From NCBI GenBank assembly GCA_038233215.1, contig JBBSML010000012.1, forward strand, positions 1,751-65,750: a DNA stretch of 64,000 nt, read 5' to 3'. Positions 1 through 20,080 of this stretch are shown here, in pieces (position 1 is the first letter of the stretch; each line of letters starts with the position of its first letter). The position numbers and the translations under genes were made by a program. The DNA is from Candidatus Limnocylindria bacterium. GTDB taxonomy: Bacteria; Chloroflexota; Limnocylindria; QHBO01. Under the pieces are notes generated by a model. It had not been told where the DNA came from. It saw only the letters and a program-made list of their open reading frames with translations, and did no database searches.

Positions 1-182
1 TTGGCAGCGGCGCTCCTCGAGAGCCGGTCATGGGCATCAACTGGCAGCTCTTTCGCCGCGATGGCCGGCGGCCGCCTGCCGCTGATCGATTACCCACTTG
101 GTTCGACCGGCGCGCACACGCTGGGACCGGCAATGCCGGGTGTTCAGGTCGAAGCGCCGGGCTTCGGCGAGTTCGGGAGGCC

Positions 183-473
183 CTAGGAATCGATGCGCTC
201 AACCAATCGATCTGCAAGCGCGATCGAGTAGTTCTGCCCGCGATCGTGGGGATAGACCTGGAACATACTCGCCACCCACAGGTTCGGAATGGCGGTATGG
301 AACGGCGGGATGTGATTCCGGTAGTCCACGGTGACGATCGGCTGCGCGAATGGGGCGGCGAAGATCCAGGCATCGGTCATCCAGGATCGGTCGACGGTAA
401 GACCGGCCCGCCTAAGGCCCTCCCACCAGAAATCACCAGGACCATCGACGCTGGCGAGAGCGAGATCCACCAT
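183..473 (-). CDS. hypothetical protein (about 97 aa), aromatic-rich (FWWEG..., ...YPHDRGQNYSIALADRLVERIDS)
   Basis: ORF 183..605 minus. Start taken at the internal Met (cat at 471-473) because the upstream part crosses a palindromic promoter region. No family recognised. The antisense ORF 30..476 is the alternative reading. Confidence 0.3.
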   Translation of the reverse strand: MVDLALASVDGPGDFWWEGLRRAGLTVDRSWMTDAWIFAAPFAQPIVTVDYRNHIPPFHTAIPNLWVASMFQVYPHDRGQNYSIALADRLVERIDS

Positions 474-510
474 TGACATGCGTAGATTCCTACGTAGTAT
501 CTTACGCATG
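473..510 (+). promoter_or_regulatory. divergent promoter/operator: TTGACA (473-478), 16-nt spacer, TAGTAT (495-500), overlapped by nested inverted repeats CATGCGTA(477-484)/TACGCATG(503-510) and CGTAG/CTACG
   Basis: Seen directly. Unusually AT-rich for this genome. The -10 ends 7 nt before the ATG at 508, implying a leaderless mRNA. Confidence 0.4.
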
Positions 511-966
511 AAAGACCGCTTGACGTACCAGGCGACGGATCTTGCACGCAACCATCGGAACGTGTTGGCGGAGGCCCGCGCCGGATACGCGCTCGTTCGC
601 GACAAGGACGGGACGACGCTGATCCTGACGCCGGCGGGTGATGTCGAGCGACTGCGCGAGCTCGCCGATCTGGCACTCGGACTGGCAACGCTCCAGCGGG
701 TGCTGACACGGCCGATGGATCAGCGCGCCACCGCGCTGTACGGAAGCTTCGCGTGGGCAAGTGCCCTGCCGGAGGAGAATCAGCGCGCGTTCGCCGAAGA
801 ACTTGCCGATGCGTTGCTGATCGCCACCTCCGGGACCTCGTTGGAGCCGGTTCGGGAGCTGATCGGAGACTGGATCGCGACCGTCGAGGCGTGGGCTGAT
901 CCCGAAACCCGCGGGCGCCTTCTCACGGATGAGCCTGACCCTCTGCGCGTTGAGCTTCACGGCTGA
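508..966 (+). CDS. hypothetical protein; N-terminal about 50 aa resemble the Phd/YefM antitoxin fold (TYQATDLARNHRNVLAEARAGYALVRDKDGTTLILTP)
   Basis: ORF 331..966; start placed at ATG 508 (MKDRLTYQ...) just downstream of the promoter-like element. The YefM-like pattern is by eye only. Confidence 0.4.
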   Translation: MKDRLTYQATDLARNHRNVLAEARAGYALVRDKDGTTLILTPAGDVERLRELADLALGLATLQRVLTRPMDQRATALYGSFAWASALPEENQRAFAEELADALLIATSGTSLEPVRELIGDWIATVEAWADPETRGRLLTDEPDPLRVELHG

Positions 967-1719
967 CCGTGGCTGCGGAAGAGTCGCCGCCATGGACACT
1001 GCTCGCCGCTTCGGCGTCCGCAGAACGAGAGTGGGAGGAGGCGAGGACGAGGGAACCGGAGCTGATGCGAAGGACCGCGGAACGGTTACGACAGCGTCCG
1101 CTCGACCGATCGGCCAATCCACGCCGCACGCACCGCCTGAAGCCTCCGCTGGACTCGATGCGGATCGGTCATCGGCGCTTACCGCAATGGCAGCACGAGC
1201 TCAGCACCGCCTGTCGGATCCACTATTGTCCCGATTCCGAGGCTCGAATCATCTGGATCACAATGGTAAGCCTGCGCCACCCGAGAACAACCGAGTGAGC
1301 CTCGAGCGGCGTCGTCGCGTGAACTATCGATTGATCGAGCGGGGGCAGGCCGCGGGTTCCGATCAACGCGGCAGACTGGGAACGGCCAAGACGCTTGCAG
1401 CGCAGTCCGCCACCTGAGGCTGCTGCCCTTCAGCACCAATACCCGTGCCGTGGCCTCAGGGAGCCTGGGGCCTCGCCCGCGCTAACCTCGGTTAAATCCT
1501 CCGCAGCGACCCAACCTCCGCAACGCGCGCCGCAAGGAAACGAACCCGCTCAGCGCCATTGAGAACGGCGCGGCTGGTGCTACCCGTCGCCGGTGAATCG
1601 AACGATCGAGTCGTTGCTGGCCGCTGCTTCCACCTATAGCGTGCCGCACCAATGCTACTCTTGGAAGCAGCAGGAACCTTGCGGCCGGAACGTCCAGCAG
1701 AGGCGATAGTTCTCTAACG

Positions 1720-3924
1720 GTGAGCTCAAAGCCAAGCGCGTCGATTCGCACCGGAGCGATGGGTGGTAGCGCGGTACTCCTGCTGTTCATCGTCACGATC
1801 TTTCTGGGCGCGGTCCTCGTATTCGGCGTGCAGCCGATAGCCGCACGGTTGCTCTTGCCACGCTTCGGCGGCAGCCCAGGAGTCTGGAGCGCCGCCAGCC
1901 TTTTCTTCCAGTTGGCGCTCCTGGCCGGGTATGGCTACAGCTTTCTCCTCACCTGCCACGTCACGCAGCGTTATCAGCCACTTATTCATGTGCCCCTGCT
2001 GGCCATGCCGCTGCTGCTCCTGCCGCTCAGCCTGCCGATCAGCGGTCAACCCGCCACGGACGCCACGCCGGCCATTTCGGTTCTGGGCGTGCTAGCCGTT
2101 GGCCTCGGCATTCCATTCGCCGTGGCATCGACAACCGGTCCGCTGCTTCAGCGGTGGTTTAGCTACACCGGTCACCGATCCGGATCTGATCCTTATTTCC
2201 TCTACGCGGCAAGCAATACCGGCAGTCTGTTGGTCCTGTTGGCGTATCCATTCTTGCTCGAGCCGCGCTTGACGCTCGATGAACAGTCGATTGCCTGGTC
2301 TGTCGGCTACGCAGTCTTCGCCTTCCTTGGAGCGACATGTGCGGTCGTGATGCGGCGACGCGCTCCGGGGGAAGCGACGTCAGACCGGCTGGTCGAAAAG
2401 GAGAAGGGCTCGGGAAGCTCGGCGACAGTTCCAACATGGCGCTCGCGGGCGCGATGGGTCGTCTTGTCCGCCGTGCCGTCCGCCCTCTCTCTTGGGACAA
2501 CGCAACACATCAGCACGGACATCGCCGCAGTACCGCTTCTCTGGATTGCGCCCTTAGCGCTCTACCTGACGAGCTTCATAGTTGCATTCTCCAGGAGGAA
2601 TCCGCTTAGCTCGAGCGTCGCCGGCAACCTTCTGCCGATTCCCGCGGCCGCCATGGTGGTGGTGCCCTTGTTAGGCGCACCGATCTGGCTGACCATCAGT
2701 ATCCATCTGCTCCTGCTGTTCGTTGCAGCCGTTATGTGCCACGCGCGCTTGGCTGAGGAACGGCCTTCCACCCGATATCTGACCGAGTTCTACCTGCTCT
2801 TGAGCATCGGTGGCGCATTGGGGGGCGTCTTCGTCTCGCTGCTTGCGCCGCTGCTGTTCGACCGGGTATGGGAATACCCGCTGGCAATCGTCGCGGCGCT
2901 CCTGCTGCGCCCGCGGATCCAGGGCCTCTTACCCCGATGGAGCCTTATTGCAGTAGGAGGGACTATCGCCCTCGCGGTCATCGCGTTGCTCGTACGCGCT
3001 CAGGAACCATCCGTCCTGCCTGGTTGGACCCCGTGGATCGCCTTGGCCGCGACGCTTCTCGCGCTCTCGCGGTGGCGAATCGTCTTGGCGGCCGTAACGG
3101 CATTCCTCCTTGGGGTACCACTCACCAACGGAGAAGGGGCAATCTACACGGATCGCACATTCTTCGGCGTGTACCGGGTTCTCTCCACTGAGGGCCGGCA
3201 CGAGCTGCTGCACGGCACGACCGTGCATGGCATGCAGTTCTTGGGAGCCACAGAACGTGAGGTGCCTGCCACCTACTATCACCCGACGGGTCCGATTGGC
3301 CAGGTCTTAACGGCTCGCGGCAGCGCGTTCAAACGAATTGGAGTGGTGGGCCTGGGGGTGGGCACCCTGGCGAGCTACGGCACGCCCGGCCAGCACCTCA
3401 CATTCTTCGAGATCGACCCGGCAATGGTGGCGCTCGCCCGTGAGCCGACCTTATTCACGTACCTAGCTGATTCGGAAGCTGAGATCGATATCCGGGTGGC
3501 CGATGGCCGACTCGGCCTCGTCGCCGATACGACACGGTACGATCTATTAGTGGTCGATGCTTTCTCGTCCGACGCCATCCCCGTCCACCTGTTGACTCGT
3601 GAGGCGCTATCCATCTACGAAAGCCGGCTCGCGTCTGGTGGAGTCATCGCCTTCCACATCACGAACCGATACCTTGACCTCGCACCGGTTCTGGGGAATA
3701 TCGCGGACTCACTCGGCATGAGCGCGCTGGTCCAGGTTGACACAACTCTGTCTGCGTATGCTCTGGCTCAAGGGAAGGCCGCCTCCACCTGGGTCCTGCT
3801 TGCCCCCCGGCCTGCCGACCTCGCGCCCTTTGACACCGATGCACGGTGGACTCCCGCCAAGCTTGACCCTGACAGCCGCGTCTGGACCGATGGGTACTCG
3901 GACCTCATCGGTGCCCTTCACTAG
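1720..3924 (+). CDS. membrane-anchored spermidine-synthase-like (polyamine aminopropyltransferase fold) protein
   Basis: 734-aa ORF. N-terminal about 480 aa is a multi-TM hydrophobic domain. The C-terminus has a class-I MTase/spermidine-synthase-like region (VVGLGVGTLASYG, FFEIDPAMVALAR, VDAFSSDAIPVHLLTRE). GTG start at 1720; ATG alternative at 1759. Confidence 0.65.
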   Translation: MSSKPSASIRTGAMGGSAVLLLFIVTIFLGAVLVFGVQPIAARLLLPRFGGSPGVWSAASLFFQLALLAGYGYSFLLTCHVTQRYQPLIHVPLLAMPLLLLPLSLPISGQPATDATPAISVLGVLAVGLGIPFAVASTTGPLLQRWFSYTGHRSGSDPYFLYAASNTGSLLVLLAYPFLLEPRLTLDEQSIAWSVGYAVFAFLGATCAVVMRRRAPGEATSDRLVEKEKGSGSSATVPTWRSRARWVVLSAVPSALSLGTTQHISTDIAAVPLLWIAPLALYLTSFIVAFSRRNPLSSSVAGNLLPIPAAAMVVVPLLGAPIWLTISIHLLLLFVAAVMCHARLAEERPSTRYLTEFYLLLSIGGALGGVFVSLLAPLLFDRVWEYPLAIVAALLLRPRIQGLLPRWSLIAVGGTIALAVIALLVRAQEPSVLPGWTPWIALAATLLALSRWRIVLAAVTAFLLGVPLTNGEGAIYTDRTFFGVYRVLSTEGRHELLHGTTVHGMQFLGATEREVPATYYHPTGPIGQVLTARGSAFKRIGVVGLGVGTLASYGTPGQHLTFFEIDPAMVALAREPTLFTYLADSEAEIDIRVADGRLGLVADTTRYDLLVVDAFSSDAIPVHLLTREALSIYESRLASGGVIAFHITNRYLDLAPVLGNIADSLGMSALVQVDTTLSAYALAQGKAASTWVLLAPRPADLAPFDTDARWTPAKLDPDSRVWTDGYSDLIGALH

Positions 3925-4175
3925 ATGACGACCGCTCGTGGATGGGCATCAGCAGAGCGGACGGACAGTACCGTGAGTCCCGGCCACGGGATGACCACTA
4001 CGACCACATGAGCTTACGGTTCGCGTGCCGGATCCTGTCTCGCGCGCTAGGGCCGCGCGTAGACACGTCTGTCGGGCCTCTGCCAATTGCCCGCTCAGTA
4101 GACCGCGGAGCTGCGGGCATCCGTCAGTCAACCGTCCCGTTGTTCCGCCAAGAATCGATGCGATGATGTGGCACG

Positions 4176-5117
4176 ATGATCAACAAGCTCGATCGCACGG
4201 CGTCCAAGATGCGGCTCCGCGGCGTTGGTCGGCCCTCGCTCGGCGTCCGGCTGGCGCGCATCGTGGCTTTGGCGGTGATCATAGGAATCGGGTTCAGCCA
4301 TGTCTGGTGGTCGATCACCGACTGGCACCTGAAGGACATGAACGCCTACTGGGATGCCGGGGTGAGGCTACGGGCCGGCGACGCGCTCTATCCGCAGATA
4401 GCCAACGTTCTCGCGTCGGAGGTATACCGATACAGCCCCTGGTTCGCGTGGCTGTGGGCGCCGCTCACCGTTCTCCCGCGGGAATTGGTGAACGTGCTCT
4501 GGTCGGCCGTCCTGCTCGCAGCAAGTATCGCCGCCGTTTGGCCGATGGCTCGGCGCGGGAGCTGGATCGCCGTTGCCTTCTTTCTACCTGTGCTCATCGG
4601 CATTTCGGCGGGAGGCAATGTTCATGCGCTGCTCATCGCCGCTCTCGTGCTGGGCATCGAACGGCCCAGCGGTCCGGTGTGGATCGGCGTGGCCGCCTCA
4701 CTCAAGGTCTTTCCGATCCTGTTCGCCCTGACCTATCTCGGGCGCCGCCAATGGTGGCGGGTGATCGGAACCGGAGCGATCGCCGCGATCCTTCTGGCTC
4801 CCTATCTCCTCTACGATCTCACCAATTACGTCACCAGCGCCGGCGGCGCCGCGCTCCTTAGCCAGTGGATGCCGGTGTATGTGATGGCTGTCGCGGCGAG
4901 CATCGCTGCCGCACTCTGGTACGCCAGGAGTCGGCACGCCTGGCTGGCCTCCGCCGTCGCCGTGGCGCTCGCTTTGCCACGATTCTTCGTCTACGACATC
5001 ACCTACTTGGCGGTCGGGCTAGCGGAGGCCAGAGACGGAACCACGTCAGAGCCGCGTCCTGCCCATCATCGGTCGCCCTGGGGCCGGGAGCCGATCAGAG
5101 ACGTCACTGATCCTTGA
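4176..5117 (+). CDS. GT87/DUF2029-family polyprenol-phosphate-sugar dependent membrane glycosyltransferase (paralog 1)
   Basis: Multi-TM protein with the family core GGNVHALLIAALVLGIERP...AASLKVFPILFAL, shared with four other paralogs in this window. Confidence 0.65.
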   Translation: MINKLDRTASKMRLRGVGRPSLGVRLARIVALAVIIGIGFSHVWWSITDWHLKDMNAYWDAGVRLRAGDALYPQIANVLASEVYRYSPWFAWLWAPLTVLPRELVNVLWSAVLLAASIAAVWPMARRGSWIAVAFFLPVLIGISAGGNVHALLIAALVLGIERPSGPVWIGVAASLKVFPILFALTYLGRRQWWRVIGTGAIAAILLAPYLLYDLTNYVTSAGGAALLSQWMPVYVMAVAASIAAALWYARSRHAWLASAVAVALALPRFFVYDITYLAVGLAEARDGTTSEPRPAHHRSPWGREPIRDVTDP

Positions 5118-5340
5118 GCTGATAGATCGGCCACCCTTCAATGACGTCGTCAGTACTTCGTGGCTAGTGCGTCAGTGGGCAGGCCGTGTAGGGTGCGCCA
5201 TGTGATTCGCCCCTCCCTCCTGCCAGCCGCGCCAATTCCGGAGCGCCTCCGCCTCGTCCTGCTGGCCTTCCTGGTCCTCTTTGTGGATCATCTTCAAGCC
5301 GCTGCTGTCGATTAGCCCGGTGCACCTCCCACCGCTGACC

Positions 5341-6183
5341 ATGTCGCGGCTGGCCAAGGCCGCCCTCCTGGTGGTTCTGCTAGTGCCCAACCTCGTCCTG
5401 ACTCAGTGGTCGGTGGAGGCAATCCTCAACGGAAAGATCGCCGTTGATTGGGTCCAGTATGCCGAAGCCGGTGAGCGGGTCTGGACCGACGACCTTTACG
5501 GATCAACGGCGACGTACGGATGGCGCTATTCGCCCATCCTCGCCTATGCCTTCACCGTACTTGGGCTTATGGGCACCATGGCCTGGCGCGTTCTCCACTT
5601 CGTCGCCGCGCTTGCGTTGCCCGGCTGGAAGCTCGTCCTAGTCACGCTTATTTCCTGGCCATTCTGGTTCGACGTCGAGACCGGCAACACGATGGTGTTC
5701 GTACTGCTGGCGGCTGCATGGGCCCTGCGGGGGAGCCGAATCGGCATCTTTGGGTTCCTGGCCCTCACCCTCCTCATCCCTCGGCCACTGATGCTGCCAG
5801 TCGCGGCATGGATCCTCTGGCAGCATCCCGAGTGGCGCTGGCGCTTCGCGGCCATGTTTGTGATCCACGGGCTGGCGGTGCTGGTCACAGGCTGGGGAGC
5901 TGCATGGATCGCCGAGCTCCTCTGGTCTCCCGCCGATCACCTTTCGCCCAGTAACGTTGGACCCAGCCGGTTCATCGGTCTGACGTGGATCATCGTGGGC
6001 GCTCCGCTTGCCGCGTGGCTGACCTGGAAGGGCCGACTCGGTCTGGCGAGCCTCGCGATCAGCCCCTATCTGCTGCCGTACTACCTCATGATGGGACTGC
6101 TCGAGCTCATCCCGGTCCGCCGTCGGCAGTATGCTGTCCGAGCATTGCCAGCACAGCCCGCGCGTTGGAAGGCAGCGTCATGA
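5341..6183 (+). CDS. GT87/DUF2029-family membrane glycosyltransferase (paralog 2)
   Basis: ORF 5281..6183, start placed at MSRLAKAALLVV. Core ETGNTMVFVLLAAAWAL...; C-terminus ISPYLLPYYLMMGLLELIP. Confidence 0.6.
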   Translation: MSRLAKAALLVVLLVPNLVLTQWSVEAILNGKIAVDWVQYAEAGERVWTDDLYGSTATYGWRYSPILAYAFTVLGLMGTMAWRVLHFVAALALPGWKLVLVTLISWPFWFDVETGNTMVFVLLAAAWALRGSRIGIFGFLALTLLIPRPLMLPVAAWILWQHPEWRWRFAAMFVIHGLAVLVTGWGAAWIAELLWSPADHLSPSNVGPSRFIGLTWIIVGAPLAAWLTWKGRLGLASLAISPYLLPYYLMMGLLELIPVRRRQYAVRALPAQPARWKAAS

Positions 6184-7070
6184 CCTCGGTCCCAACCGTC
6201 CTGGACGATCTTCTCCCGACTCCCCGCTCGCTACCCCGTGCCGGGCGCCTGACGGTCACCCTGATCAGCCTCGCCCTGTTGGCAGTGGGCGTCACCACGG
6301 CCGCGGCGAACTGGCACCTGACGGACCTGAAGGCGTACCTCGCGGCGGCAGATCTGCTTGCAGCGGGCGGGAATCCGTTCGACTTGGCGCTCGTCGAACG
6401 CGGGGTGACGTACTACTATCACTACAGCCCGTGGTTTGCGGGGCTCTTCGTACCTTTCACTGGGCTGCCACCCGAGCTCATCCGCGTTGGGTGGTCCGTC
6501 ATCCTCATCGCAGCCAGCGGCCTGGCAATCGTCCCCCTCGTGCGGATGCATGGGGCCGCCGGCCTTCCGCTCGTCGCGCTCATCGCGTTCCTCCTCCTCA
6601 ACCTCGTTGCCGAAGGCAACGTCCAGCCCCTTCTCCTCGCGGCGCTGGTCTGGTCGTTGGAGCGGCGAGCTGGCCCCGTCGCCATCGGCATGGCGGCGAG
6701 TCTCAAGATCACGCCCATCCTGCTTGCCCTCGTCTACGTGGGCCGAGGTGAATGGGCTCGAGCGCTCCTGTCCGCGGCTGTCGCTGGTCTGCTCGTTCTT
6801 CCGACGCTCCTGTTCGAGCTCACCCCGAACGCGACCGAGACGGGTGGCACCGGCCTCTTCACCTCGGCACCGATCCTATGGGCGCTCCTGGTGCTGACCG
6901 CCCTGGCGTCCACGATGTGGCTGGCACGGTCACGATTCGGCTGGCTCGCCGCTTCCACGGCCACGGTGCTCGCGCTGCCCCGGTTGCTCATCTTCGACTT
7001 CACGGTCCTGATCACCGCGTTTCCGGCGCGCCGCACCGAGCGTGCCCTGCCCGGACCATCGGACTACTGA
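6180..7070 (+). CDS. GT87/DUF2029-family membrane glycosyltransferase (paralog 3)
   Basis: Start ATG 6180 (MTSVPTVLDD) overlaps the upstream stop as ATGA. Core AEGNVQPLLLAALVWSLERR...AASLKITPILLAL. Confidence 0.65.
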   Translation: MTSVPTVLDDLLPTPRSLPRAGRLTVTLISLALLAVGVTTAAANWHLTDLKAYLAAADLLAAGGNPFDLALVERGVTYYYHYSPWFAGLFVPFTGLPPELIRVGWSVILIAASGLAIVPLVRMHGAAGLPLVALIAFLLLNLVAEGNVQPLLLAALVWSLERRAGPVAIGMAASLKITPILLALVYVGRGEWARALLSAAVAGLLVLPTLLFELTPNATETGGTGLFTSAPILWALLVLTALASTMWLARSRFGWLAASTATVLALPRLLIFDFTVLITAFPARRTERALPGPSDY

Positions 7071-7099
7071 GGCCGACCGGGCTGCGTGCTAGCGTTGCT

Positions 7100-7650
7100 C
7101 GGTCGCACCACGACGGACCGTACATGACCACTCGCACGACGCTGACCCAGCCCTGGCTGCGCGCCCTGGTCGGCATTGCCATCAGTATCGACTTCGAGCT
7201 AGAGGACCATCGCATCCGAGCCTTCAACCATATCGGTCCGGGACAGGAGCCTGGTTTTGTCATTTCTCGCTTTCCGAGCAGCTGTCGCGGATCGGGAGGG
7301 GCGAGCAGGAACCGGTCATCGAAGTCGGGAACGTCGAGTCGCGCCGCGACTTCACCGACGTCCGCGACGTCGTCCGTGCCTATCGCCTGGCAGGGGTCAT
7401 GGGAGTGCCCGGCGAGGCTTACAACGTCGTTTCGAGCCGCGCGGTGAGCGTGCAAACGGTTCTCGACCACCTCGTCCGCGCCGCCGGAGCAGCGGTCAAG
7501 GTCGCCTCTGATCCACAGCGCACCAGGGCCGGCGAGTCTCCCCAGGCCCTGGTCGGAGACTCCTCGAAGCCGTCACGACTCACCGGGTGGCAGCCCAAAG
7601 TCTCCTTCGAGCAGACCGATGTCATGGACGCTCTCTTCGAGCCCGCGTAG
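7100..7650 (+). pseudogene. 5'-truncated, frameshifted remnant of a GDP-mannose 4,6-dehydratase / GDP-4-keto-6-deoxymannose reductase (Gmd/Rmd, SDR-extended) gene
   Basis: Frame 2 gives ...RAFNHIGPGQEPGFVISRF. After a +1 shift near 7250, frame 1 continues SEQLSRIGRGEQEPVIEVGNVESRRDFTDVRDVVRAYRLAG...PGEAYNVVSSRAVSVQTVLDHLV..., the conserved C-terminal half of Gmd/Rmd enzymes. The N-terminal Rossmann domain is missing. Confidence 0.6.
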
Positions 7651-7652
7651 GA

Positions 7653-8471
7653 ATGCACGCCGTGGGACTGCCGATGAGCCGCGACATCGACTGGCTGCCC
7701 CTGGCTCGGTGGGTCGGCATTGCGGGACTGGCGGTCGTGTGGGTCGCGCTCCTGGTCCTCCAGCCGGACGTCACCGGGAAGCCCTTCGGCGTCGACGCCA
7801 TGGCGTATCACGGTTCGCCAATGGCCAACCCGTACGACGGCCCGCAGGTCGGACTCCCTGGTGCCTACCTGTATCCACCGCCGTTCATCCAGCTGCTCAC
7901 GCCCCTGCGACTCCTACCCTGGGAGCTGTTCATTGCCCTTTGGCTGGCACTCGAGCTCGCGGCACTTGCCTGGCTCCTGTCCCCTGCAATTGCACTGCTT
8001 GCGCTGGCAATTCCATACGTGCTGGCCGAGGTCGCCATCGGCAACGTCCACCTGTTCATGGCCGTGGCCATGGTGATCGGGATCCATCGCCCGGCATGGT
8101 GGGCTTTCGTCGCTCTGACCAAGCCAACCGTGGCCGTCGTCGCGACGTGGCATATCTTCCGTGGCGAGTGGCGCGCCGCCGTGATTGCCGCAGTTGCCAC
8201 CGCCGTCGTCGCGATCGCGTCCATCCTGATTGCCCCGGACTTGTGGGTCGCATGGATCGACCGCATGCGGGGAGGTACGGGGACGGCTGGCTCTACCTGG
8301 ATGGTCGCTCTCGCCGTTCGTGTCGTGTTGGCAGGTGGGATCGCGTGGTTCGCGGCGCGCCGCAACCGTCCGGTCTTCCTGCCCCTGGCTGCATTTATCG
8401 CCTTGCCGATCCCGTGGCTCGAGGGATTAACCCTCTTCGCAGCGATCCCCCGATTGGTCCGCAGCCGATGA
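7653..8471 (+). CDS. GT87/DUF2029-family membrane glycosyltransferase (paralog 4)
   Basis: ORF 7587..8471, start placed at ATG 7653 (MHAVGLPMSRDIDW) right after the pseudogene stop. Core AIGNVHLFMAVAMVIGIHRPAWWAFVALTKPTV. Confidence 0.6.
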   Translation: MHAVGLPMSRDIDWLPLARWVGIAGLAVVWVALLVLQPDVTGKPFGVDAMAYHGSPMANPYDGPQVGLPGAYLYPPPFIQLLTPLRLLPWELFIALWLALELAALAWLLSPAIALLALAIPYVLAEVAIGNVHLFMAVAMVIGIHRPAWWAFVALTKPTVAVVATWHIFRGEWRAAVIAAVATAVVAIASILIAPDLWVAWIDRMRGGTGTAGSTWMVALAVRVVLAGGIAWFAARRNRPVFLPLAAFIALPIPWLEGLTLFAAIPRLVRSR

Positions 8472-8514
8472 CTCGCGCACTCGCGCCCGCCGTTCCGGCC
8501 CTTACCAGCGGTCG

Positions 8515-8870
8515 GTGCTCTTGGTCGTGGTCGCGGCCATCCTGGCCGTCCCGAACGCGATCTTGCTCGGTGAGACGTTCGGCTTCATCGCGTCGCGGCA
8601 CTACCATCGGCACGGTGTACGCCGTTCTCTCATTGGCGACCGAAGAGGCATTTTCTTTTCTGGCGTCTCTCACCGGGGCACGGAACTCATGGCCATGCAG
8701 TACAACTGGGGACCGACGGCATGGATTGGCCCAGCATGGCTCCTAGCTGGGATCCCAATCGCTGCCTTACTAACCTGGAGGGGCAGAATCGGGTGGCTGC
8801 CTTGGCGGGTAGCCCCCACATCCTTCCGTATTACCTGCTGGTGTTGCTTTGGGAGGTTGGATTGACGACG
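8515..8870 (+). pseudogene. frameshifted 3' fragment of a further GT87/DUF2029 paralog
   Basis: The two reading frames give ...GPTAWIGPAWLLAGIPIAALLTWRGRIGWLP then ...AGSPHILPYYLLVLLWEV, which align to the C-terminus of paralog 2 (GLTWIIVGAPLAAWLTWKGRLGLASLAISPYLLPYYLMMGLLEL). Confidence 0.45.
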
Positions 8871-8917
8871 GGCACCGGATCCGGCGCGCCGGCCGAGACC
8901 CAGACGGGGGGGCTTCC

Positions 8918-9712
8918 ATGAAGGGCCTTCTTCTCGCGGGTGGCAGCGGGTCGAGGCTCTTCCCGCTCACCCTTGTCACCAACAAGCATCTCCTGCCCGT
9001 CTACGACCGCCCGATGATCTACCACCCCCTCGAGACCCTCCGTGACATGGGCTGCCGGGAGGTGATGGTGGTTGTCGGCGGACGCTCGGTGGGCGACGTG
9101 CTCGAGCTCCTTCACGACGGTTCCGACGTCGGGCTGGATCTCACCTACCGATACCAGCGCGGCGCGCTGGGAATCGCGCACGCCATTGGCCTCGCCCGCG
9201 AGTTCGCGGGATCCGATCCGCTCGCGGTGGTCCTCGGAGACAACATCGTCCGCGGCTCGCTTCGCCAATTCGCGGACGAGTTCGTGGCAAGTACCGCTGC
9301 CGCGGGTGCGGTGCTGAAGGCCGTGCCCGATCCGCATCGGTTCGGTGTGGCGGAGTTCGGCGACGACGGCCGGGTCATCGGCTTCGAGGAGAAGCCGTCG
9401 AATCCGAAGTCGAACCGGATACCCATTGGCGTCTACCTCTTCCGGCCGAGCGTGTTCGACGTGCTCCGCAAGCTGCGACCGTCGGCCCGCGGAGAGTTCG
9501 AGATCACCGATGTCCTCAACCACTACGTTCGAGAGGGAAGCCTGATCGCCCACGACTTCGCCGGGGACTGGATGGACGCAGGGACGGTGGAGTCCCTGCT
9601 GGATGCCAACACGTTTGCCGCCGGCTACGCCGCCGAGCATCCGATCGAGACCGGCCGCAGCATCGCCGAGGTGGGAGCCGAGCCGGTCGACCCGGGATCG
9701 GTCCGGCCATGA
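8918..9712 (+). CDS. rmlA: glucose-1-phosphate thymidylyltransferase-like sugar nucleotidyltransferase
   Basis: MKGLLLAGGSGSRLFPLT...NKHLLPVYDRPMIYHPLETL, a nucleotidyltransferase N-terminal signature. It is the first gene of an rml operon and overlaps the next gene as ATGA. Confidence 0.75.
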   Translation: MKGLLLAGGSGSRLFPLTLVTNKHLLPVYDRPMIYHPLETLRDMGCREVMVVVGGRSVGDVLELLHDGSDVGLDLTYRYQRGALGIAHAIGLAREFAGSDPLAVVLGDNIVRGSLRQFADEFVASTAAAGAVLKAVPDPHRFGVAEFGDDGRVIGFEEKPSNPKSNRIPIGVYLFRPSVFDVLRKLRPSARGEFEITDVLNHYVREGSLIAHDFAGDWMDAGTVESLLDANTFAAGYAAEHPIETGRSIAEVGAEPVDPGSVRP

Positions 9713-10731
9713 GGCTGCTCGTGACCGGCGGTGCCGGGTTCATCGGCTCGTCGTTCGTCCGCCGCGCCATGGCGCGGCCCGCCGTCGATCAGCTGACGGT
9801 CATCGACAAGCTCACGTACGCCGGCAACCCGGCCAACCTGGCGGAGGTCGCGGGTGACCCGCGCTACCGCTTCCTGCATGCCGACATCAACGACGCCGAG
9901 GTCGTCACCGGCCTGATGCGCGACGCCGACGCGGTGGTAAATTTCGCTGCCGAGTCGCATGTCGACCGCAGCATCGAGGAGGCCGACGCCTTCGTCCGCA
10001 CCGACGTCAACGGCACGTTCACTCTCCTCGAAGCAGCCCGCGCGACCGGCGTCGCCCGGTTCGTGCAGGTGAGCACCGATGAGGTGTACGGCGACGTTCC
10101 CGAGGGCAGCTCCAGCGAAGCCGATGCGCTCCGTCCGCGAAGCCCGTACGCGGCGAGCAAGGCAGCCGCAGACCTCCTGGCGCTCGCGTATCACACTACC
10201 CACGGCGTCCCGGTGATGATCACCCGCGGGAGCAATACCTACGGACCGAGACAGTTTCCGGAGAAGATAATCCCGCTGTTCATCACCAATGCCATCGACC
10301 ACGAGCCGTTGCCGCTCTACGGCGATGGGCTCCAGGTCCGCGACTGGCTGCACGTCGACGACCATTGCGCGGCGGTCGAGGCGGTGCTGGATCGGGGGAC
10401 AGCGGGCGAGATCTACAACGCCGGCGGCACGGCCAGCTTGACGAACCTTGAGCTGACACGGTGGCTACTCGGCCTGCTGGACCGCCCCGAGTCGCTCATC
10501 CGGCACGTGGCTGATCGTCCGGGACACGATCGGCGGTACGCGCTCGACAGCTCGAGGCTGCGGGCGCTCCGATGGCAGCCGCGGGTCGCCCTCGAAGACG
10601 GGCTTGCCGCGACCGTCGATTGGTATCAGCAGAACGAGGCTTGGTGGCGGCCCATCAAGGACGGCTCGTTCCGCGACTACTATCGGCGCCTGTATGCGGA
10701 ACGACTCGCGACGTCCACGGCCGCGTGGTGA
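9709..10731 (+). CDS. rmlB: dTDP-glucose 4,6-dehydratase
   Basis: MRLLVTGGAGFIGSSFVRR...; YAASKAAADLL (YxxxK); extended SDR fold. Confidence 0.85.
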   Translation: MRLLVTGGAGFIGSSFVRRAMARPAVDQLTVIDKLTYAGNPANLAEVAGDPRYRFLHADINDAEVVTGLMRDADAVVNFAAESHVDRSIEEADAFVRTDVNGTFTLLEAARATGVARFVQVSTDEVYGDVPEGSSSEADALRPRSPYAASKAAADLLALAYHTTHGVPVMITRGSNTYGPRQFPEKIIPLFITNAIDHEPLPLYGDGLQVRDWLHVDDHCAAVEAVLDRGTAGEIYNAGGTASLTNLELTRWLLGLLDRPESLIRHVADRPGHDRRYALDSSRLRALRWQPRVALEDGLAATVDWYQQNEAWWRPIKDGSFRDYYRRLYAERLATSTAAW

Positions 10732-11582
10732 CCCGCGTCGTCGTCATCGGGGCTGCCGGCCTCCTCGGTCGCGAGCTGTGCGGAGCGTTTTTGAAGAGCG
10801 GCCACGAGGTCATACCGCTGACACGCGCCGACGTCGATCTCGCCGACCCCGCGTCCCTCGGGCCCATCAGAACAGCGCGGGCCGATATCGTCATCAATGC
10901 CGCCGCTTGGACTGACGTGGACGGGTGTGCTCGCGACCCGGATCGAGCGCAGCTGATCAACGGCGCAGGGCCTGGAGGTGTGGCTGGGGCGAGTGCCGAG
11001 GGAGGGGCGCTGATGATCCAGGTCAGCACGAACGAGGTATTCGACGGGCGAGAGGAACGGACGTATGCGGAGAACGACGTGCCGAATCCAATCAACCCGT
11101 ACGGTGCATCCAAGGCCGCGGGCGAGCGCGCGGTGATGGCCGCGACGGACCGTCACCTGATCGTGCGGACGGCGTGGCTCTTCGGACCCGATCGTGGATT
11201 CCCTGCGCGCATCAGACAGGCCGCGGACCGCGCCCACTCATCCGGCGAATCACTGCGGGTCGTGGACGACGAGTGGGGAAACCCCACGCTCGCCAGTTCG
11301 CTCGCGGCGGCGATGGTGGATGCCGCCCAGCTCGCCCTTGGGAGCCCCGCTCTTCGGGTACTGCACCTGGCGGGATCGCCGCCCGCCACTCGGTGGGAAT
11401 GGGCGCAGCAGATCCTCGCTCATCATCCGGTCGACATCCGGGCGATCCACCACGTGGAGTACGTCCGAGCTTCCGCCGTCCCGTATCACGCCGTCCTCGC
11501 GCTTGACCTTGCACGGTCGCTCGGGCTGGCAGAGATCGACTGGCGGACGGTGGCGAGAGGTACCGTCGATGCTCCGAGCTGA
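10728..11582 (+). CDS. rmlD: dTDP-4-dehydrorhamnose reductase
   Basis: GTG start at 10728 overlaps the rmlB stop as GTGA. VTRVVVIGAAGLLGRELCGAF...PYGASKAAGE. Confidence 0.8.
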   Translation: MTRVVVIGAAGLLGRELCGAFLKSGHEVIPLTRADVDLADPASLGPIRTARADIVINAAAWTDVDGCARDPDRAQLINGAGPGGVAGASAEGGALMIQVSTNEVFDGREERTYAENDVPNPINPYGASKAAGERAVMAATDRHLIVRTAWLFGPDRGFPARIRQAADRAHSSGESLRVVDDEWGNPTLASSLAAAMVDAAQLALGSPALRVLHLAGSPPATRWEWAQQILAHHPVDIRAIHHVEYVRASAVPYHAVLALDLARSLGLAEIDWRTVARGTVDAPS

Positions 11583-12120
11583 ACGCACCGCGCTCGAGGG
11601 CGTGCAGATCCTCACTCCGGGCGTCCACGCGGATCGGCGTGGATTCCTTGTCGAGTCATATCGCGCGGCCGAGCTGGCCACGGCAGGCATCACCAACCCG
11701 TTCATCCAAGAGAATCACTCGCGATCAGTACGCGGCGCGCTCCGCGGGCTCCACTTCCAGGCCCCGCCGGGCCAGGCCAAGCTGGTGCGCGTGGCACGCG
11801 GTGCCATCCTAGACGTCGTCGTCGACATCCGTCGCTCCTCCCCGACCTTCGGACAACACGTGGCGGTCACCCTCGACGACGCCCTGCACCGCCAGCTGTA
11901 CATTCCGACCGGGTTCGCGCACGGATTCATGGTGCTGACCGAGGACGCGGACGTCATGTACCGACTTGATCGGTACTACGACCCGGCTCTCGAGCGTGGG
12001 GTCGCGTGGGATGACCCGGCCCTCGCCATCGAGTGGCCAGTGGAGAACCCGACGCTCTCCGAACGCGACCGCGCCAATCCGCTGCTGGCCGCCCTCCCCG
12101 CCGAACTTACTGACTGGTGA
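11568..12120 (+). CDS. rmlC: dTDP-4-dehydrorhamnose 3,5-epimerase (cupin)
   Basis: MLRAERTALEGVQILTPGVHADRRGFLVESY...RGLHFQAPPGQAKLVRVARGAILDVVVDIRRSSPTFGQH; start overlaps the rmlD 3' end. Confidence 0.85.
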
Positions 12121-12819
12121 CTCGTGGCCGGCGCAGCCGGCCCACCAGGTGCGATCGCAGTGGCGGGATGAGCTCCAACGGTCCGTACAGGATCCTCGTC
12201 AGCGGACCCAGCCGTCGCGCGACGGGGGGCAGCAGCGTCACTGCACGCAGTTCGGACAGCCAACCGGGAAAGAGCTGGGCGAGGCGCGAACGGCCGATCC
12301 CGTGCACCGCGCGGTTGGACGGATTGCCGAGCCGGAGGTCGTACCAGACGAGCCATCCGCCTCGCGCCAGCACCCGCGCGATCTCCGCCGCCACAGCCTC
12401 CTCGAGCTGCCCTGATGGGAGGGACGAGAACAGGGTCGAGGTGACTACCACGTCAAACGCCGCGGTATCAAACGGAAGACGGTCCGCAGAAGCCTCGACG
12501 AATTCGGCCCACGACATGGACGACGCGGCCGCAGCGACCGCCCCGGGATCCAGGTCAGCGCCCGTCCAGGATACGATCGGCAGGCCGGCGTCGCGGGCCA
12601 CCTCGGCCAAACGACCGTTCCCCATGCCGAGGTCGAGAACGCGGCCACCACCCTCGGGGAGGCTGCGACCAAGGACGCTCACGAGCGCCCGGTCGCGGTC
12701 GTGGACCATCCGCGCGAATCCGCGGTTCCGCAGGTCCCAGATCCGAACTCGCCCGTTGGCCCGGTAGCGCCGATACGTCTCGCGGATCGCCTCGAGATCG
12801 CGGTCGCGGTCACTCATCC
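12107..12819 (-). CDS. class I SAM-dependent methyltransferase
   Basis: Motif I VLDLGMGNGRLAEVA. The start is placed at MSDRDRDLEAIRETYRRY (cat 12817-12819), not at the upstream extension of ORF 12107..13204, because the next gene overlaps there. Confidence 0.65.
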
Positions 12820-13815
12820 CCGCGGAGCACCGGCGACGGCTGCGGACGCGCGGACGCGATTCGCGAGCCTTTGCCACTGGGCGGCCGCGGACAGGGTGCC
12901 CATGCCATACGCCAGGTGCATGACGAGCGCTACAACCGGCAACAACACGCGTGCGGTCAGCCCGGACGCCGGCACTCGGACGGCGAAGATGCACGCCGCC
13001 AGCAGCCATGATGCACCGAGGACGACGAGCGGGAGCCACCACCCCAGAAGCGCGAGTGCGCAACCAATGATCAGCGCCAGGACGAAGACCGCCGGCACGA
13101 AGTGACGCCATCGGATGGCCGATGGGCGGATGGTGGCGAGAGCAACCTTCCAGAACCCGTATCCGTGGTACTGCCGCCAGATGCCCACCAGGGAGTCGCG
13201 GCACCGGTAGGTCGACCGGATGGAAGGTTCGAGCCGGATCCGAAGGCCGGCTTCGCGAATGCGAGCGTTGAGGTCATCGTCCTCGGTCCGGAGTAGGGCC
13301 CGGTTATATCGCCCGACGCGATCGAAGACATCGCGACGGTACACGCCTAGGTAGACCGACTCCACGTCCCGCGCGTCGCCAGCGAAGTGAAACTGCGAGT
13401 CTCCGACGCCGAACGGCGACTGGAGAAGGGCGGCCATCGCACGGCCGATCACTGTCGATCCGACGGGCCGCATCGGTCCACCGGCGACAGCGATGGCGCG
13501 GTCCGTGAGCACCTCCGCCGCACGCTGAAGGTAGTCAGGGGCGATTCGAGCCTGGGCGTCGACGAGGGCCACCAGATCAGCGCTGATGGCATTGAGGGCG
13601 ACGTTGATCGCGGAGGCTCGATCGCCCTCGGGGTTACTGAGAACACGCACACCGGGGGCCATCAAGCCCGTCGCCACGTTGTGTGTGTCATCACTCGAGG
13701 GACCGACCATGATCACCACGTCGTCGGGGATCCAAGATTGACCCGTGACCGCAGCGAGACAGTCCGGAAGCAGGTGTGCTGCGTCCCGTGCCGGGACGAC
13801 CACGGCAACGGTCAT
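12814..13815 (-). CDS. GT2 glycosyltransferase with C-terminal transmembrane helices (polyprenyl-phosphate sugar synthase-like, GtrB/ArnC/DPM type)
   Basis: MTVAVVVPARDAAHLLPDCLAAV...; D-x-D region; TEDDDLNARIR; C-terminal about 90 aa has 2-3 predicted TM helices. Overlaps its neighbours by 4-6 nt (translational coupling). Confidence 0.7.
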   Translation of the reverse strand: MTVAVVVPARDAAHLLPDCLAAVTGQSWIPDDVVIMVGPSSDDTHNVATGLMAPGVRVLSNPEGDRASAINVALNAISADLVALVDAQARIAPDYLQRAAEVLTDRAIAVAGGPMRPVGSTVIGRAMAALLQSPFGVGDSQFHFAGDARDVESVYLGVYRRDVFDRVGRYNRALLRTEDDDLNARIREAGLRIRLEPSIRSTYRCRDSLVGIWRQYHGYGFWKVALATIRPSAIRWRHFVPAVFVLALIIGCALALLGWWLPLVVLGASWLLAACIFAVRVPASGLTARVLLPVVALVMHLAYGMGTLSAAAQWQRLANRVRASAAVAGAPRG

Positions 13816-14747
13816 CGGCGCGGATCCTCGTCGTTGGCCGCCGACCACAGGGCTCGCCAGGCCCGACGCGCTCCGGCCCGCAGTGACAGAGTCATGCCAA
13901 CGGCCCGCAGCCAGAGAAGAAGCAGCGCCAGCACCGAGCCGCCCGGGCCGTACCACTTGCCCAGGTACTGGCGCATCGACCGCGCGTGGAGCGGCCCGAA
14001 GTGGTAGTCCTCCGAGCTGCTCGCGCCACCGATGTGGGTCACCACCGCCGAAGGCACGTAGCGGATCGGCATTCCCGCCGCGGCGGCGCGCCGGCAGAGG
14101 TCGGCATCCTCGAAGTACATGAAGAACCTCTCGTCGAAGCCGCCAAGCTCCCCAAAGGCTTCACGACCGATGGCGAAGCAGGCGCCAGATACCATGTTGG
14201 TATCGATCGTCTCGGTGGCGGTCTCCGCGCTCGCATACTCCCGCGCGAGGCGCGAATGCCGTAGCAATGCGCCAATGCTTGGGACCCGACGTACCCAGTT
14301 TCCAATGGCGTGCAGCCCGAGCATTCGAATGATGAGATCGGATGGCTCTGGAAGGAGCCCGGCAGAACGCTGAATGGAATCGCCGGGTTCGATGAGGCGC
14401 GGGCCGACAACCCCTCGACCATTCCACCTGCGGACTTCACTAAGGATCTCGCCGAGTGAAGTTCCGGAAATGGCCGCGTCGCTATTCAAGAAGACCAGCG
14501 TCGCGCCGTTAGCCGCCCTCGCGCCAATGTTGGCCGCTGCACCGAAGCCGCCGTTCTGAAAACTTTCTAGGACAACGATCCCCCTTGCCTGTAGACCTTT
14601 TAGTCTCTCCACCGTATCGTCGTGAGATGCGTTATCGATGACCACCACTTCGTCGGCCCCTGCCGACAGCGCACTTAGCGCCGCGCTTTCTGTCAGGGCT
14701 GGCGTTCGATAGCTCGCTATGATCGCGCTCGATCGGACTATCTGCAT
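13812..14747 (-). CDS. GT2 family glycosyltransferase (WbbL/rhamnosyltransferase-like)
   Basis: SAIIASYRTP...VVVIDNASHDDT...FFMYFEDADLCRR. Start at MQIVRSS (cat 14745-14747); the longer ORF to 15299 is antisense to the divergent GT2. Confidence 0.7.
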   Translation of the reverse strand: MQIVRSSAIIASYRTPALTESAALSALSAGADEVVVIDNASHDDTVERLKGLQARGIVVLESFQNGGFGAAANIGARAANGATLVFLNSDAAISGTSLGEILSEVRRWNGRGVVGPRLIEPGDSIQRSAGLLPEPSDLIIRMLGLHAIGNWVRRVPSIGALLRHSRLAREYASAETATETIDTNMVSGACFAIGREAFGELGGFDERFFMYFEDADLCRRAAAAGMPIRYVPSAVVTHIGGASSSEDYHFGPLHARSMRQYLGKWYGPGGSVLALLLLWLRAVGMTLSLRAGARRAWRALWSAANDEDPRR

Positions 14748-14774
14748 ACTTTGCTTCGCAGCCGGTAGATCGTT

Positions 14775-15710
14775 TTGATTCTCAGCCATCCCGAACTCTC
14801 CGTCCTCATCGTCAATTACAACTCCACGAACTTGTTGCGGAAATGCTTGGCTTCGCTCACTGCCAGCACCATCGCGGACCGTCTCGAGGTGATCGTGGTG
14901 GACAACGCTTCCGCAGACTTCGACGCGCCGGCCATCGGGATGGAGTTTCCATGGGCGCGCCTGCTGCCGCAGACGACGAACACGACATGGACCGGCGGCA
15001 ACAACATCGCTTTCGATGTATCTTCCGCGCCCCTGGTCCTCCTGCTTAACCCGGACACTGAGGTGGAGCCCGAAGCGCTCGAACGAGCGGTTCAGCATCT
15101 TCGGGACGACGCTTCGCTCGTCGGTTTGGGAGCGATCCTCATCGGACCAGACGGCAACCTCCAGCACTACTACCGACGGCTCCCGACCGTCCTCGATCTC
15201 CCGATCATTTTGTTCGAACCGATCTTCCGCCGCACTAAGCGCGGAAAGCACTACCTCATGCTCGACGAGGCATTTGATCGTCCAACAGTGGTGCCCCAAC
15301 CGCCGGGGGCGTTTCTCCTCTTTCGGCGAGCCGCAGCCCGTTATCCGCTGCTAGATCCCCAGTACTTCAACTTTGTCAGTGATCTTGACCTATGTCGCGA
15401 TCTCAACCGGTCTGGGCAGTTGGTAGTCTTCCCGGATGTCCGGACGTATCACGTGCGCGCGAATGCAGGCGTCGGATCAAAGAACCCTCGGACCCGTCTC
15501 ACACTGGCCCACGACTTCGGATATGGCGTCCGTTACTACTTCAACAAGTTCGCATCGCCGCCCGAACGCCTTCTTGCTAGTTTGGCCGTAATCGTCTATT
15601 GGGGTACGCGAATGGCTCGTCTTGCGATTCGCCGACCAGCGATCGCAAGCGCTGCGGCCATGCAACTTTTTCGCGCGATCCGCGACGAGCCGCCGTCTTA
15701 CCGATCCTGA
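14775..15710 (+). CDS. GT2 family glycosyltransferase
   Basis: TTG start. PELSVLIVNYNSTNLLRKCLASL...VVDNASAD, a classical GT2 N-terminus. Confidence 0.7.
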   Translation: MILSHPELSVLIVNYNSTNLLRKCLASLTASTIADRLEVIVVDNASADFDAPAIGMEFPWARLLPQTTNTTWTGGNNIAFDVSSAPLVLLLNPDTEVEPEALERAVQHLRDDASLVGLGAILIGPDGNLQHYYRRLPTVLDLPIILFEPIFRRTKRGKHYLMLDEAFDRPTVVPQPPGAFLLFRRAAARYPLLDPQYFNFVSDLDLCRDLNRSGQLVVFPDVRTYHVRANAGVGSKNPRTRLTLAHDFGYGVRYYFNKFASPPERLLASLAVIVYWGTRMARLAIRRPAIASAAAMQLFRAIRDEPPSYRS

Positions 15711-15872
15711 TCGGTACATAGTTGACCGCCCGATCGGCAACATGGCTGCGGGCGGCAAAATCAAGGAGCGCGGCAACTCCGCCAACGCCATCGAACTTGC
15801 CGTGGCGGAGCCGGCCAACACCTGCCGGTGCCTTCATACAAGGTGCCTGGAACGATGCACCCACTACCTTGC

Positions 15873-17950: not shown

Positions 17951-18113
17951 GGAGGCGTCAGATTGGCTAAGCTCTTCCGCCTCCCTTGACACCAGCGCAC
18001 GATAGCGCAGTCGTATCTGCTTGCACCTGTCCATTCAGGCCACTGCGGACCGGTAGTGCTGCTAGAACAGCTACCGCCGGTCTAGCCTGCTGCCCCATGA
18101 CTCTGAGGCACCC

Positions 18114-19289: not shown

Positions 19290-19338
19290 CCAGCACGGAC
19301 ACTCAAACTTTCACGCATCATGATGCTACAATGCGTGC

Positions 19339-19997: not shown

Positions 19998-20080
19998 ACC
20001 GGGTTTGCGACAAACCCGGTAGTACTGTTGACCCGCGGCACCGGCCGATTCAGCCTACCTCCCACCATGATTGGCGAAAC

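Follow-up and report, generated by a model that had tools for sequence, protein, structure and literature searches.

The described proteins closest to the genes analysed here are glycosyltransferases of the GT-C fold. Among these is PimE (Rv1159; M. abscessus structures 9DM5 and 9DM7; CAZy GT87, Pfam PF09594), a polyprenyl-phosphate-mannose:Ac1PIM4 alpha-1,2-mannosyltransferase of 415 residues with 12 membrane and 4 juxtamembrane helices, which has been assigned to the GT-C_A subclass (PMC12041525). The base in catalysis is proposed to be D58, which sits at the tip of juxtamembrane helix 1 and is hydrogen-bonded to Y62. The polyprenyl phosphate is bound by K195, W319 and H322, and activity is abolished by each of the mutations D58A/N, Y62A, Y92A, Q163A, K195A and W319A (PMC12041525). 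The same Pfam family includes MptC (Rv2181) and MptD, actinobacterial alpha-(1->2)-mannopyranosyltransferases of lipomannan/lipoarabinomannan (LM/LAM) branching, and where one actinobacterial genome holds several GT87 paralogues, these are reported to differ in linkage or acceptor (PMC3123699). Two further points of comparison are glycosylphosphatidylinositol (GPI) mannosyltransferase I (PIG-M/Gpi14; GT50; 23GX, 23GF, 9WNO; 390–431 residues) and the group of ALG6, ArnT and PglB, which share a GT-C_A core of seven helices and two juxtamembrane helices. GPI mannosyltransferase I is eukaryotic, depends on dolichol-phosphate-mannose and needs a partner, PIG-X. In actinobacterial genomes, GT87 paralogues are few and dispersed, and larger than the proteins described here. 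Here we analyse five short genes (c1 to c5, Table 1) in a 64,000-nucleotide stretch of DNA from Candidatus Limnocylindria bacterium (assembly GCA_038233215.1, contig JBBSML010000012.1), referred to below as the window, of which the first four form an array.

Our reading is that these five genes encode compact PimE-like GT-C enzymes that would transfer sugars from a polyprenyl-phosphate donor to an extracytoplasmic glycan, with specificities that diverged long ago, at a locus that gains and loses genes. We assign this reading a probability of about 0.62.

Family membership, fold and active site

All five intact genes encode polytopic membrane proteins of 272–313 residues. Four of the five exceed the 25-bit gathering threshold of Pfam GT87 (PF09594): c1 with 41.5 bits, c3 with 46.1, c4 with 38.3 and c5 with 57.7. 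Against the PimE equivalog model of NCBIfam (NF009915, cut-off 413 bits), c1, c3 and c5 score only 24.4–35.9 bits, and c2 and c4 have no match. As 24–36 bits fall far below this cut-off, the window copies are, at the level of sequence, not PimE orthologues, and their host belongs to the Chloroflexota rather than the Actinomycetota. Public annotation already calls relatives of c1 and c5 "glycosyltransferase family 87 protein" (for c5, this is the NCBI name of a fragment in its 90% cluster), and close relatives of c1 are labelled Candidatus Limnocylindria. c1 itself is 100% identical to a protein encoded on a 73.6-kb public contig.

A first-pass annotation of this DNA had described four full-length GT87 paralogues head-to-tail and a further intact one at 26263, all sharing an AASLK(V/I)(F/T)PIL core, with two copies overlapping by ATGA. 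The five open reading frames (ORFs) were confirmed as intact and on the forward strand (the c4 start at 7653 is also that of the public gene call), and the overlap, read directly, is that of the c2 stop with the c3 start at 6180–6183. The GT87 assignment stands in Pfam for c1, c3, c4 and c5; it does not extend to c2, which matches nothing in Pfam or NCBIfam and whose kinship comes from hhalign and fold. Similarly, the shared core is found in c1 and c3 only, as c4 and c5 read LTK(P/I)T and c2 has no Lys there. The suggestion that these are lipid-phosphate-sugar-dependent glycosyltransferases is upheld as far as computation goes, considering the Pfam GT87 matches (4 copies), the PimE fold, the essential residues and the Wzx/Wzy-type cluster nearby.

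PimE is the best structural match for both proteins that were modelled. The AlphaFold model of c1 (predicted local distance difference test, pLDDT, 85.7; predicted template modelling score, pTM, 0.82) has product-bound PimE (9dm5) as its best match in the PDB (E 6.5e-5, template modelling score, TM, 0.59), followed in order by Candida GPI mannosyltransferase I, PIG-U and ALG6. For c2 (pLDDT 89.1, pTM 0.85), the only convincing match is PimE (9dm7_A, E 3.6e-3, TM 0.62), and ALG6 is the sole other GT-C match (E 4.3). ALG6 resembles both models (TM 0.46–0.50), but at the level of fold only (E >1), and ALG6, ArnT and PglB differ from the window proteins in their C-terminal modules. When a profile of c1 relatives was searched against PDB sequences, the best match was GPI mannosyltransferase I (E 1.3e-5), with PimE at E 2.3e-4. 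The former match covers the motifs YRY(T/S)P, GN and K-x-(F/Y)-P, although this enzyme is longer than the window proteins and its fold match to c1, the third best, is weaker than that of PimE (TM 0.51).

The residues essential in PimE can be followed through the family. A profile/HMM (hidden Markov model) alignment to 9dm5 places c1 D54, Y58, Y86, N148 and K177 at PimE D58, Y62, Y92, Q163 and K195, respectively. To this we added a motif alignment of 81 members, namely the five window copies and 76 full-length genes from 21 related loci (designated L plus a number), which were collected by a c2-family scan of one genome per GTDB species. These loci lie in metagenome-assembled genomes (MAGs) of Limnocylindria or Chloroflexota, except three that are labelled otherwise and that we take to be mis-binned. 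The 81 members divide into 54 canonical genes, with c1, c3, c4 and c5 among them, and 27 c2-type genes. The Asp is conserved in 80/81 members (26/27 c2-type), the Gly-Asn motif nearly as well (Gly 77/81, Asn 78/81), and the Tyr equivalent to PimE Y92 is present in 54/54 canonical and 20/27 c2-type genes. The Tyr four residues after the Asp (PimE Y62) occurs in 5/5 window copies, to which the Asp-x-x-x-Tyr, YxY(S/P)P and Gly-Asn motifs are all common. The Lys equivalent to PimE K195 is found in 52/54 canonical members, including the four in the window. The likeness to PimE comprises the Asp and the Tyr at +4 on the first juxtamembrane helix, the Tyr of YxY(S/P)P, G-(N/Q) and the Lys before the short sixth helix; unlike PimE, the window copies carry Asn in place of Gln163, and c2 is without the Lys.

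The window proteins are also smaller than PimE. In the models of c1 and c2, the AlphaFold secondary structure contains ~10 membrane helices and 2 juxtamembrane helices (a hydropathy count of membrane segments fused adjacent helices, and the helix number was taken from the models instead). Where PimE has an extended helix 7–8 loop with two extra helices and an arch over the donor, these proteins have ~19 residues. Read from secondary structure alone, helices 11–12 and most of the donor-arching loop seem to have been lost relative to PimE. A conserved (L/S)-P-(R/I/V/Y) motif precedes the last helix in the 81-member alignment and may be the counterpart of the PimE W319/H321/H322 site.

From the likeness to PimE, we infer a scheme of catalysis, membrane orientation, donor class and acceptor. 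By analogy, each enzyme would lie in the cytoplasmic membrane with its N-terminus inside, which fits the excess of positive charge at the N-terminus of c1 (7 K+R versus 1 D+E), and would take its sugar from a polyprenyl-phosphate-sugar donor on the outer side of this membrane. The acceptor hydroxyl would be deprotonated by the conserved Asp, which the Tyr at +4 would keep in place at the tip of juxtamembrane helix 1. The polyprenyl phosphate, as it leaves, would be bound by the Gly-Asn motif and the Lys; in the c2 type, the Lys would probably be replaced in this role by an Arg that follows after one helical turn. The copies would perform different transfers, distinct in sugar, linkage or acceptor position, which is the most likely arrangement because they belong to three ancient clades (c1/c3, c4/c5 and c2) with relatives across the class. 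This would be a likeness to MptC and MptD, which also represent several paralogues per genome with distinct roles. The acceptor would probably be a glycan outside the cytoplasm, and the most plausible candidate is the one made by the adjoining rml/GT2/Wzx/PglC-PglF/Wzy_C cluster.

The c2-type family

The c2 protein has no Pfam GT87 match even at E <= 0.1 and matches nothing in NCBIfam or in other Pfam families. The same applies to 23 relatives: in this set of 24 c2-type proteins, there is no match at E <= 1 to GT87 or to another GT-C family in Pfam. As BLASTP likewise detected no significant similarity between c2 and the remaining window copies, profile and fold methods were needed. In hhalign, the c2-family profile aligned with the c1/c3/c4/c5 profile at 94% probability (E 1.3e-7, 135 columns), and the aligned columns include the D-x-x-x-Y, YxYSP and G-N motifs. 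Considering this alignment together with the fold match to PimE, c2 is, by profile and model, a remote GT87 relative that lacks annotation and falls outside GT87 by the family's own criterion. A word-indexed search gave at least 375 c2 homologues, none of which has a precomputed Pfam domain, and an exhaustive HMM search of 1.84 billion representatives gave 412 clusters at 50% identity (361 at E <= 1e-10). Where c2 homologues are named, they are called "hypothetical protein" or "uncharacterized membrane protein", and their organism labels are Chloroflexota or Candidatus Limnocylindria.

The position of PimE K195 is occupied by L, I or V in 24/27 c2-type genes. All c2-type proteins have an invariant P-R-P, and its Arg, which lies 4 residues after the missing Lys and thus one helical turn on, probably takes over from the canonical Lys. 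The loss of the Lys would also be expected if c2-type proteins were catalytically dead GT-C-fold partners of a canonical GT87-type enzyme encoded just upstream, much as PIG-U is a non-enzymatic GT-C-fold partner in GPI transamidase. PIG-U is among the structural matches of c1, and gene order offers something to this explanation as well: in the related loci, where c2-type genes mostly sit between canonical ones, a canonical gene ends 33–51 nt upstream of a c2-type gene on the same strand in 8 instances (another canonical gene begins <=80 nt downstream in 4 instances), and in the window c2 overlaps the next gene, a junction that is also contiguous in L020. However, c2-type proteins keep not only the catalytic Asp but also Gly-Asn and YxYSP, and an invariant Arg so close to the lost Lys looks like compensation rather than decay. 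In addition, L006 has four c2-type genes in 7.8 kb (146–7802) with no canonical GT87-type gene among them, which argues against an obligatory canonical partner (the L006 MAG is labelled Acidimicrobiaceae, probably through a binning error). We therefore consider a dead-partner role unlikely and retain c2 as a putative enzyme of the PimE-like set.

Age of the duplications and turnover of the locus

The most similar window copies are c1 with c3 and c4 with c5, both 41% identical in BLASTP, with ~29–36% across these two pairs. A DNA repeat search found no repeat beyond 29 nt, only short patches at motif codons. In a neighbour-joining tree of the window copies and the 76 full-length relatives from 21 other genomes, the c2 type, the c4/c5 type and the c1/c3 type each form a deep clade, that of c1/c3 being split into many subclades, and every window copy groups with genes of other genomes, none with a window neighbour; c4, for example, groups with genes of L017, L004 and L007–L010. 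Because the best pairs are only 41% identical, long DNA repeats are absent and the closest relatives are in other genomes, the duplications are, as judged by sequence comparison, old and diversified, with no dosage effect. The first-pass annotation had reached the same view from the moderate identity among copies. The tandem arrangement on one strand could still be taken to indicate redundant recent duplicates that raise the dose of one activity, but identities of at most 41%, the lack of any repeat >29 nt and the closer relatives elsewhere refute this explanation, which we consider extremely improbable and which the first-pass annotation had also set aside.

The related loci show how far this diversification has gone. 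L013 has ~9 full-length copies in 20.7 kb, L010 has eight and L017 has seven, and the gene order of the arrays varies between genomes. This differs from MptC and MptD in that Limnocylindria have up to nine short full-length copies in ~20 kb (L013). An instance of preserved order is L005, where a c5 relative (79% identical) stands in the same mem521-...-c5-mem478-mem539 arrangement as in the window (these membrane proteins are described below). We found no published description of this expansion in the literature on Limnocylindria glycosyltransferases or on GT87 in Chloroflexi.

Two pseudogene remnants lie within or next to the array. The first-pass annotation had noted pseudogene debris between the copies and, at 8515–8870, the 3' fragment of a sixth copy. 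The latter is indeed a decayed paralogue, but of the c2 type rather than the canonical GT87 type. It matches the c2-family HMM at positions 210–252 (E 9.6e-11) and, in another frame, at positions 242–266 (E 4.7e-4), with no significant N-terminal match. After frameshift correction, its last 52 residues share 65% identity with L017_7176, a c2-type gene (E 3e-20), and only 54% with the window c2, from which we conclude that 8515–8865 is an old c2-type paralogue that lost its 5' two-thirds and not a recent copy. A comparable decay is found in L020, where c2-type HMM matches covering most of the profile are split across three frames after the c4 relative. The other remnant (7190–7650) is the 3' half of a sugar epimerase/dehydratase of the short-chain dehydrogenase/reductase (SDR) type: its corrected peptide matches Pfam GDP_Man_Dehyd at positions 178–327 of 332 (E 9.3e-16), with a frameshift near 7260 and the 5' half missing. 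This match rules out a glycosyltransferase origin. A six-frame HMM search of the entire window gave no further copies or fragments beyond the one c2-type remnant.

We compared this region with L020, the nearest long syntenic locus. Upstream of its c4 relative, L020 has a DegT-like gene, an intact GDP-mannose 4,6-dehydratase gene and an ORF of the epimerase family to which the remnant can be matched. In a DNA alignment, window 5491–7194 and 7208–8604 are contiguous, whereas in L020 the matching blocks are separated by ~5.2 kb (11833–17016) that contain the DegT-like gene, the GDP-mannose dehydratase and the 5' half of the epimerase. Conversely, window 8604–12109 (rmlABDC, ~3.5 kb) corresponds to 0.7 kb in L020 (18415–19133). 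On this alignment, the indels look like the swap of one nucleotide-sugar module for another, in either direction between the two lineages. Turnover of the locus by gene gain, loss and replacement would account for the two remnants.

Neighbouring genes and the acceptor

The window has a G+C content of ~65%. The genes c1 to c4 are all on the forward strand, between rmlA and a gene directly upstream of the array (1720–3924, forward strand) for a ~700-aa protein in which a large membrane domain is fused to a spermidine-synthase-like domain. Spermine_synth fusions also occur inside the arrays of L010 (6052–8148) and L013 (12980–15109), which suggests a recurrent functional link of such fusions with the arrays. 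Promoter and terminator scans over 3800–9000 were at background, with 1 promoter-like site (0.5 expected) and 3 terminator-like sites (2.4 expected).

Table 1. Genes, pseudogenes and gene clusters in and around the array (window positions).
Feature	Positions	Strand	Description
c1	4176–5117	+	313 aa; short GT87-type GT-C glycosyltransferase (predicted); D54-x-x-x-Y58, Y84-R-Y86-S-P, G147-N148, K177
c2	5341–6183	+	280 aa; public gene call starts at TTG 5281; separate PimE-like family without annotation; D36-x-x-x-Y40, R-Y63-S-P, G115-N116, P147-R148-P149; no Lys at the PimE K195 position
c3	6180–7070	+	296 aa; short GT87-type paralogue
SDR pseudogene	7190–7650	+	3' half of a sugar epimerase/reductase gene (GDP-mannose-dehydratase family); three-frame translation and Pfam
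c4	7653–8471	+	272 aa; short GT87-type, c4/c5 clade; D-A-M-A-Y, Y-L-Y-P-P, G-N-V-H, L-T-K
Decayed c2-type paralogue	8515–8865	+	Recognisable part 8701–8864 (last ~55 codons), frameshift near 8796; c2-family HMM
rmlA, rmlB, rmlD, rmlC	8918–12120	+	dTDP-L-rhamnose synthesis; Pfam NTP_transferase, GDP_Man_Dehyd/Epimerase, RmlD_sub_bind, dTDP_sugar_isom
Wzx/Wzy-type glycan cluster	12107–24750		Pfam and NCBIfam scans
DegT aminotransferase	18066–19289	+	
PglC/PglF fusion	19949–22591	+	880 aa; PglC-like phosphoglycosyltransferase fused to PglF-like UDP-GlcNAc 4,6-dehydratase
Wzy_C protein	22465–24750	+	O-antigen-ligase-like, with TPR repeats; Wzy_C match weak, 34 bits
mem521	24705–26270	+	Large polytopic membrane protein
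c5	26263–27144	+	293 aa; short GT87-type; between two large uncharacterised membrane proteins
mem478	27111–28547	-	Large polytopic membrane protein, mem521 paralogue
mem539	28598–30217	+	Large polytopic membrane protein

Downstream, polysaccharide genes adjoin the array, an association that recurs in L002, L003 and L017. Between 12.1 and 18.0 kb, the window carries two methyltransferases, three GT2 glycosyltransferases and a Wzx-like flippase. Over 14000–18000, which holds the GT2 genes, a methyltransferase and the flippase, G+C is 0.59–0.60 compared with ~0.66 elsewhere, as would be expected if this part of the glycan cluster were type-specific and exchanged horizontally. The DegT-PglC/F-Wzy_C module that follows is found downstream of a c2-type gene in L002 and L003 as well (in L017, DegT alone, at the locus end), with DegT and PglC/F 72–84% identical to those of the window and the Wzy_C-TPR protein 37%. 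This module is of the bacillosamine-type initiating kind and could serve polysaccharide or protein glycosylation.

The latter possibility leads to a different acceptor. The array could extend O- or N-linked glycans on surface, S-layer or pilin proteins, with the Wzy_C-TPR protein acting as an O-oligosaccharyltransferase and the PglC/PglF/DegT proteins making a bacillosamine-type linking sugar. The PglC/PglF fusion, DegT and the Wzy_C protein do resemble components of general O-glycosylation systems for proteins (Wzy_C is present in PglL and PilO), and the window has a Tad/Flp pilus cluster at 33.7–43.4 kb. Yet Wzy_C also marks O-antigen ligases and polymerases, its match here is weak (34 bits), and no di-N-acetylbacillosamine acetyltransferase was identified, so we judge a protein acceptor to be rather improbable. 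The Tad/Flp-type cluster (33751–43395, forward strand) encodes a CpaE-like ATPase with an N-terminal response-regulator domain, a CpaF-like T2SSE ATPase, two TadB/C-like T2SSF proteins, a histidine kinase and a TadE/G-like protein.

A second alternative is that the acceptor is a membrane-anchored glycolipid or lipoglycan, similar to phosphatidylinositol mannosides (PIMs) or lipomannan, and that the array is independent of a merely adjacent Wzx/Wzy cluster. The GT87 enzymes characterised so far, PimE, MptC/Rv2181 and their relatives, are all reported to have PIM, LM or LAM as substrates (PMC12041525; PMC3123699), and many related arrays adjoin other GT-C-like membrane proteins rather than a Wzx/Wzy cluster. 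Against this, in the window as in L002 and L003, the array adjoins the DegT-PglC/F-Wzy_C module, the copies are not PimE orthologues by the bit scores given above, and inositol-lipid or PimA/PimB-type genes were not seen in the scanned part of the window, which in contrast to the setting of MptC and MptD has no sign there of a PIM/LM pathway. We regard a glycolipid acceptor as doubtful and favour the glycan of the adjoining cluster.

Several points weigh against our preferred reading of PimE-like enzymes acting on an extracytoplasmic glycan. For the short clades, it is built on sequence, fold and context. The proposed link to the neighbouring cluster is one of adjacency, and several related loci have arrays without a Wzx/Wzy-type cluster within their 10-kb flanks. 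The c2 type lacks the essential Lys and has a hydrophobic residue there. The window proteins are ~100–140 residues shorter than PimE, so that donor binding could differ, and a profile of the C-terminal 65 residues, searched for a counterpart of PimE W319/H322, gave no PDB sequence match at E <= 10. Finally, a polyprenyl-phosphate-sugar synthase (Ppm1/GtrB-like) was not recognised among most of the larger ORFs at 1.7–51 kb (52–64 kb was unscanned); compared with NCBIfam, the GT2 proteins of the window gave only generic or weak EpsD/MftF/PglI-like matches.

Three large polytopic membrane proteins surround c5, namely mem521, mem478 and mem539, and all recur beside GT87-like arrays in related loci. 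None has a match in Pfam, NCBIfam or PDB sequences. The 90% cluster representative of mem539 (near-identical) has the NCBI name "phospholipid carrier-dependent glycosyltransferase", and members of the mem521/mem478 family, where labelled, are "hypothetical proteins" of Limnocylindria/Chloroflexota. mem521 and mem478 (each ~500 aa) are 27% identical and share invariant motifs, N-terminal D48-x-D50-x-x-W-H and C-terminal Y-x-W-G-G ... I-D-G-R-S-D. By eye alone, these recall the DxD and WWDYG...DGG of oligosaccharyltransferases, a likeness that no test supported: as STT3/PglB/AglB candidates, 20 family members had no Pfam match at E <= 1, and a PDB profile search was negative at E <= 10. Other membrane proteins are found within or beside arrays elsewhere. 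PMT_2 (ArnT/PMT-like GT-C) proteins occur in L017 (3757–5412) and L011 (8625–10085), and thus several kinds of lipid-carrier-dependent glycosyltransferase are combined in these neighbourhoods. L010 has, inside its GT87-like array (1879–3444), a 522-aa fusion of an HTTM domain (a vitamin-K-dependent-carboxylase-like membrane domain) with a DCC1-like thiol-disulfide oxidoreductase.

Within the Chloroflexota, Candidatus Limnocylindria is a class without cultured members that is abundant in soil and fresh water. That such small PimE-like enzymes have expanded throughout this class, next to genes for polysaccharides, suggests extensive sugar decoration outside its cytoplasmic membrane. Relative to the literature found, three features are new: the proteins are minimal in size, the c2 type forms a family in which the phosphate site is altered, and the expansion is class-wide and rearranging. 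Current knowledge is not overturned; for 4/5 genes, public pipelines already apply the name "glycosyltransferase family 87 protein" to their type. For the c2 type (~400 sequence clusters), annotation as a distant relative of GT87 whose donor-phosphate site has changed is now possible, and the arrays provide a natural set of minimal GT-C proteins (~280 aa) suited to structural and specificity studies. More tentatively, and with the odds against all of it holding together, these proteins of 270–310 aa would be the smallest working GT-C enzymes, with a ten-helix core that dispenses with the final two helices and donor arch of PimE, c2 would represent a new glycosyltransferase family that Pfam does not detect, with Arg for Lys, and the arrays, large and quick to rearrange, would produce strain-specific surface glycans outside the cytoplasmic membrane. 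If true, surface variation in this monoderm phylum would arise by an unusual route that depends on donor lipids.

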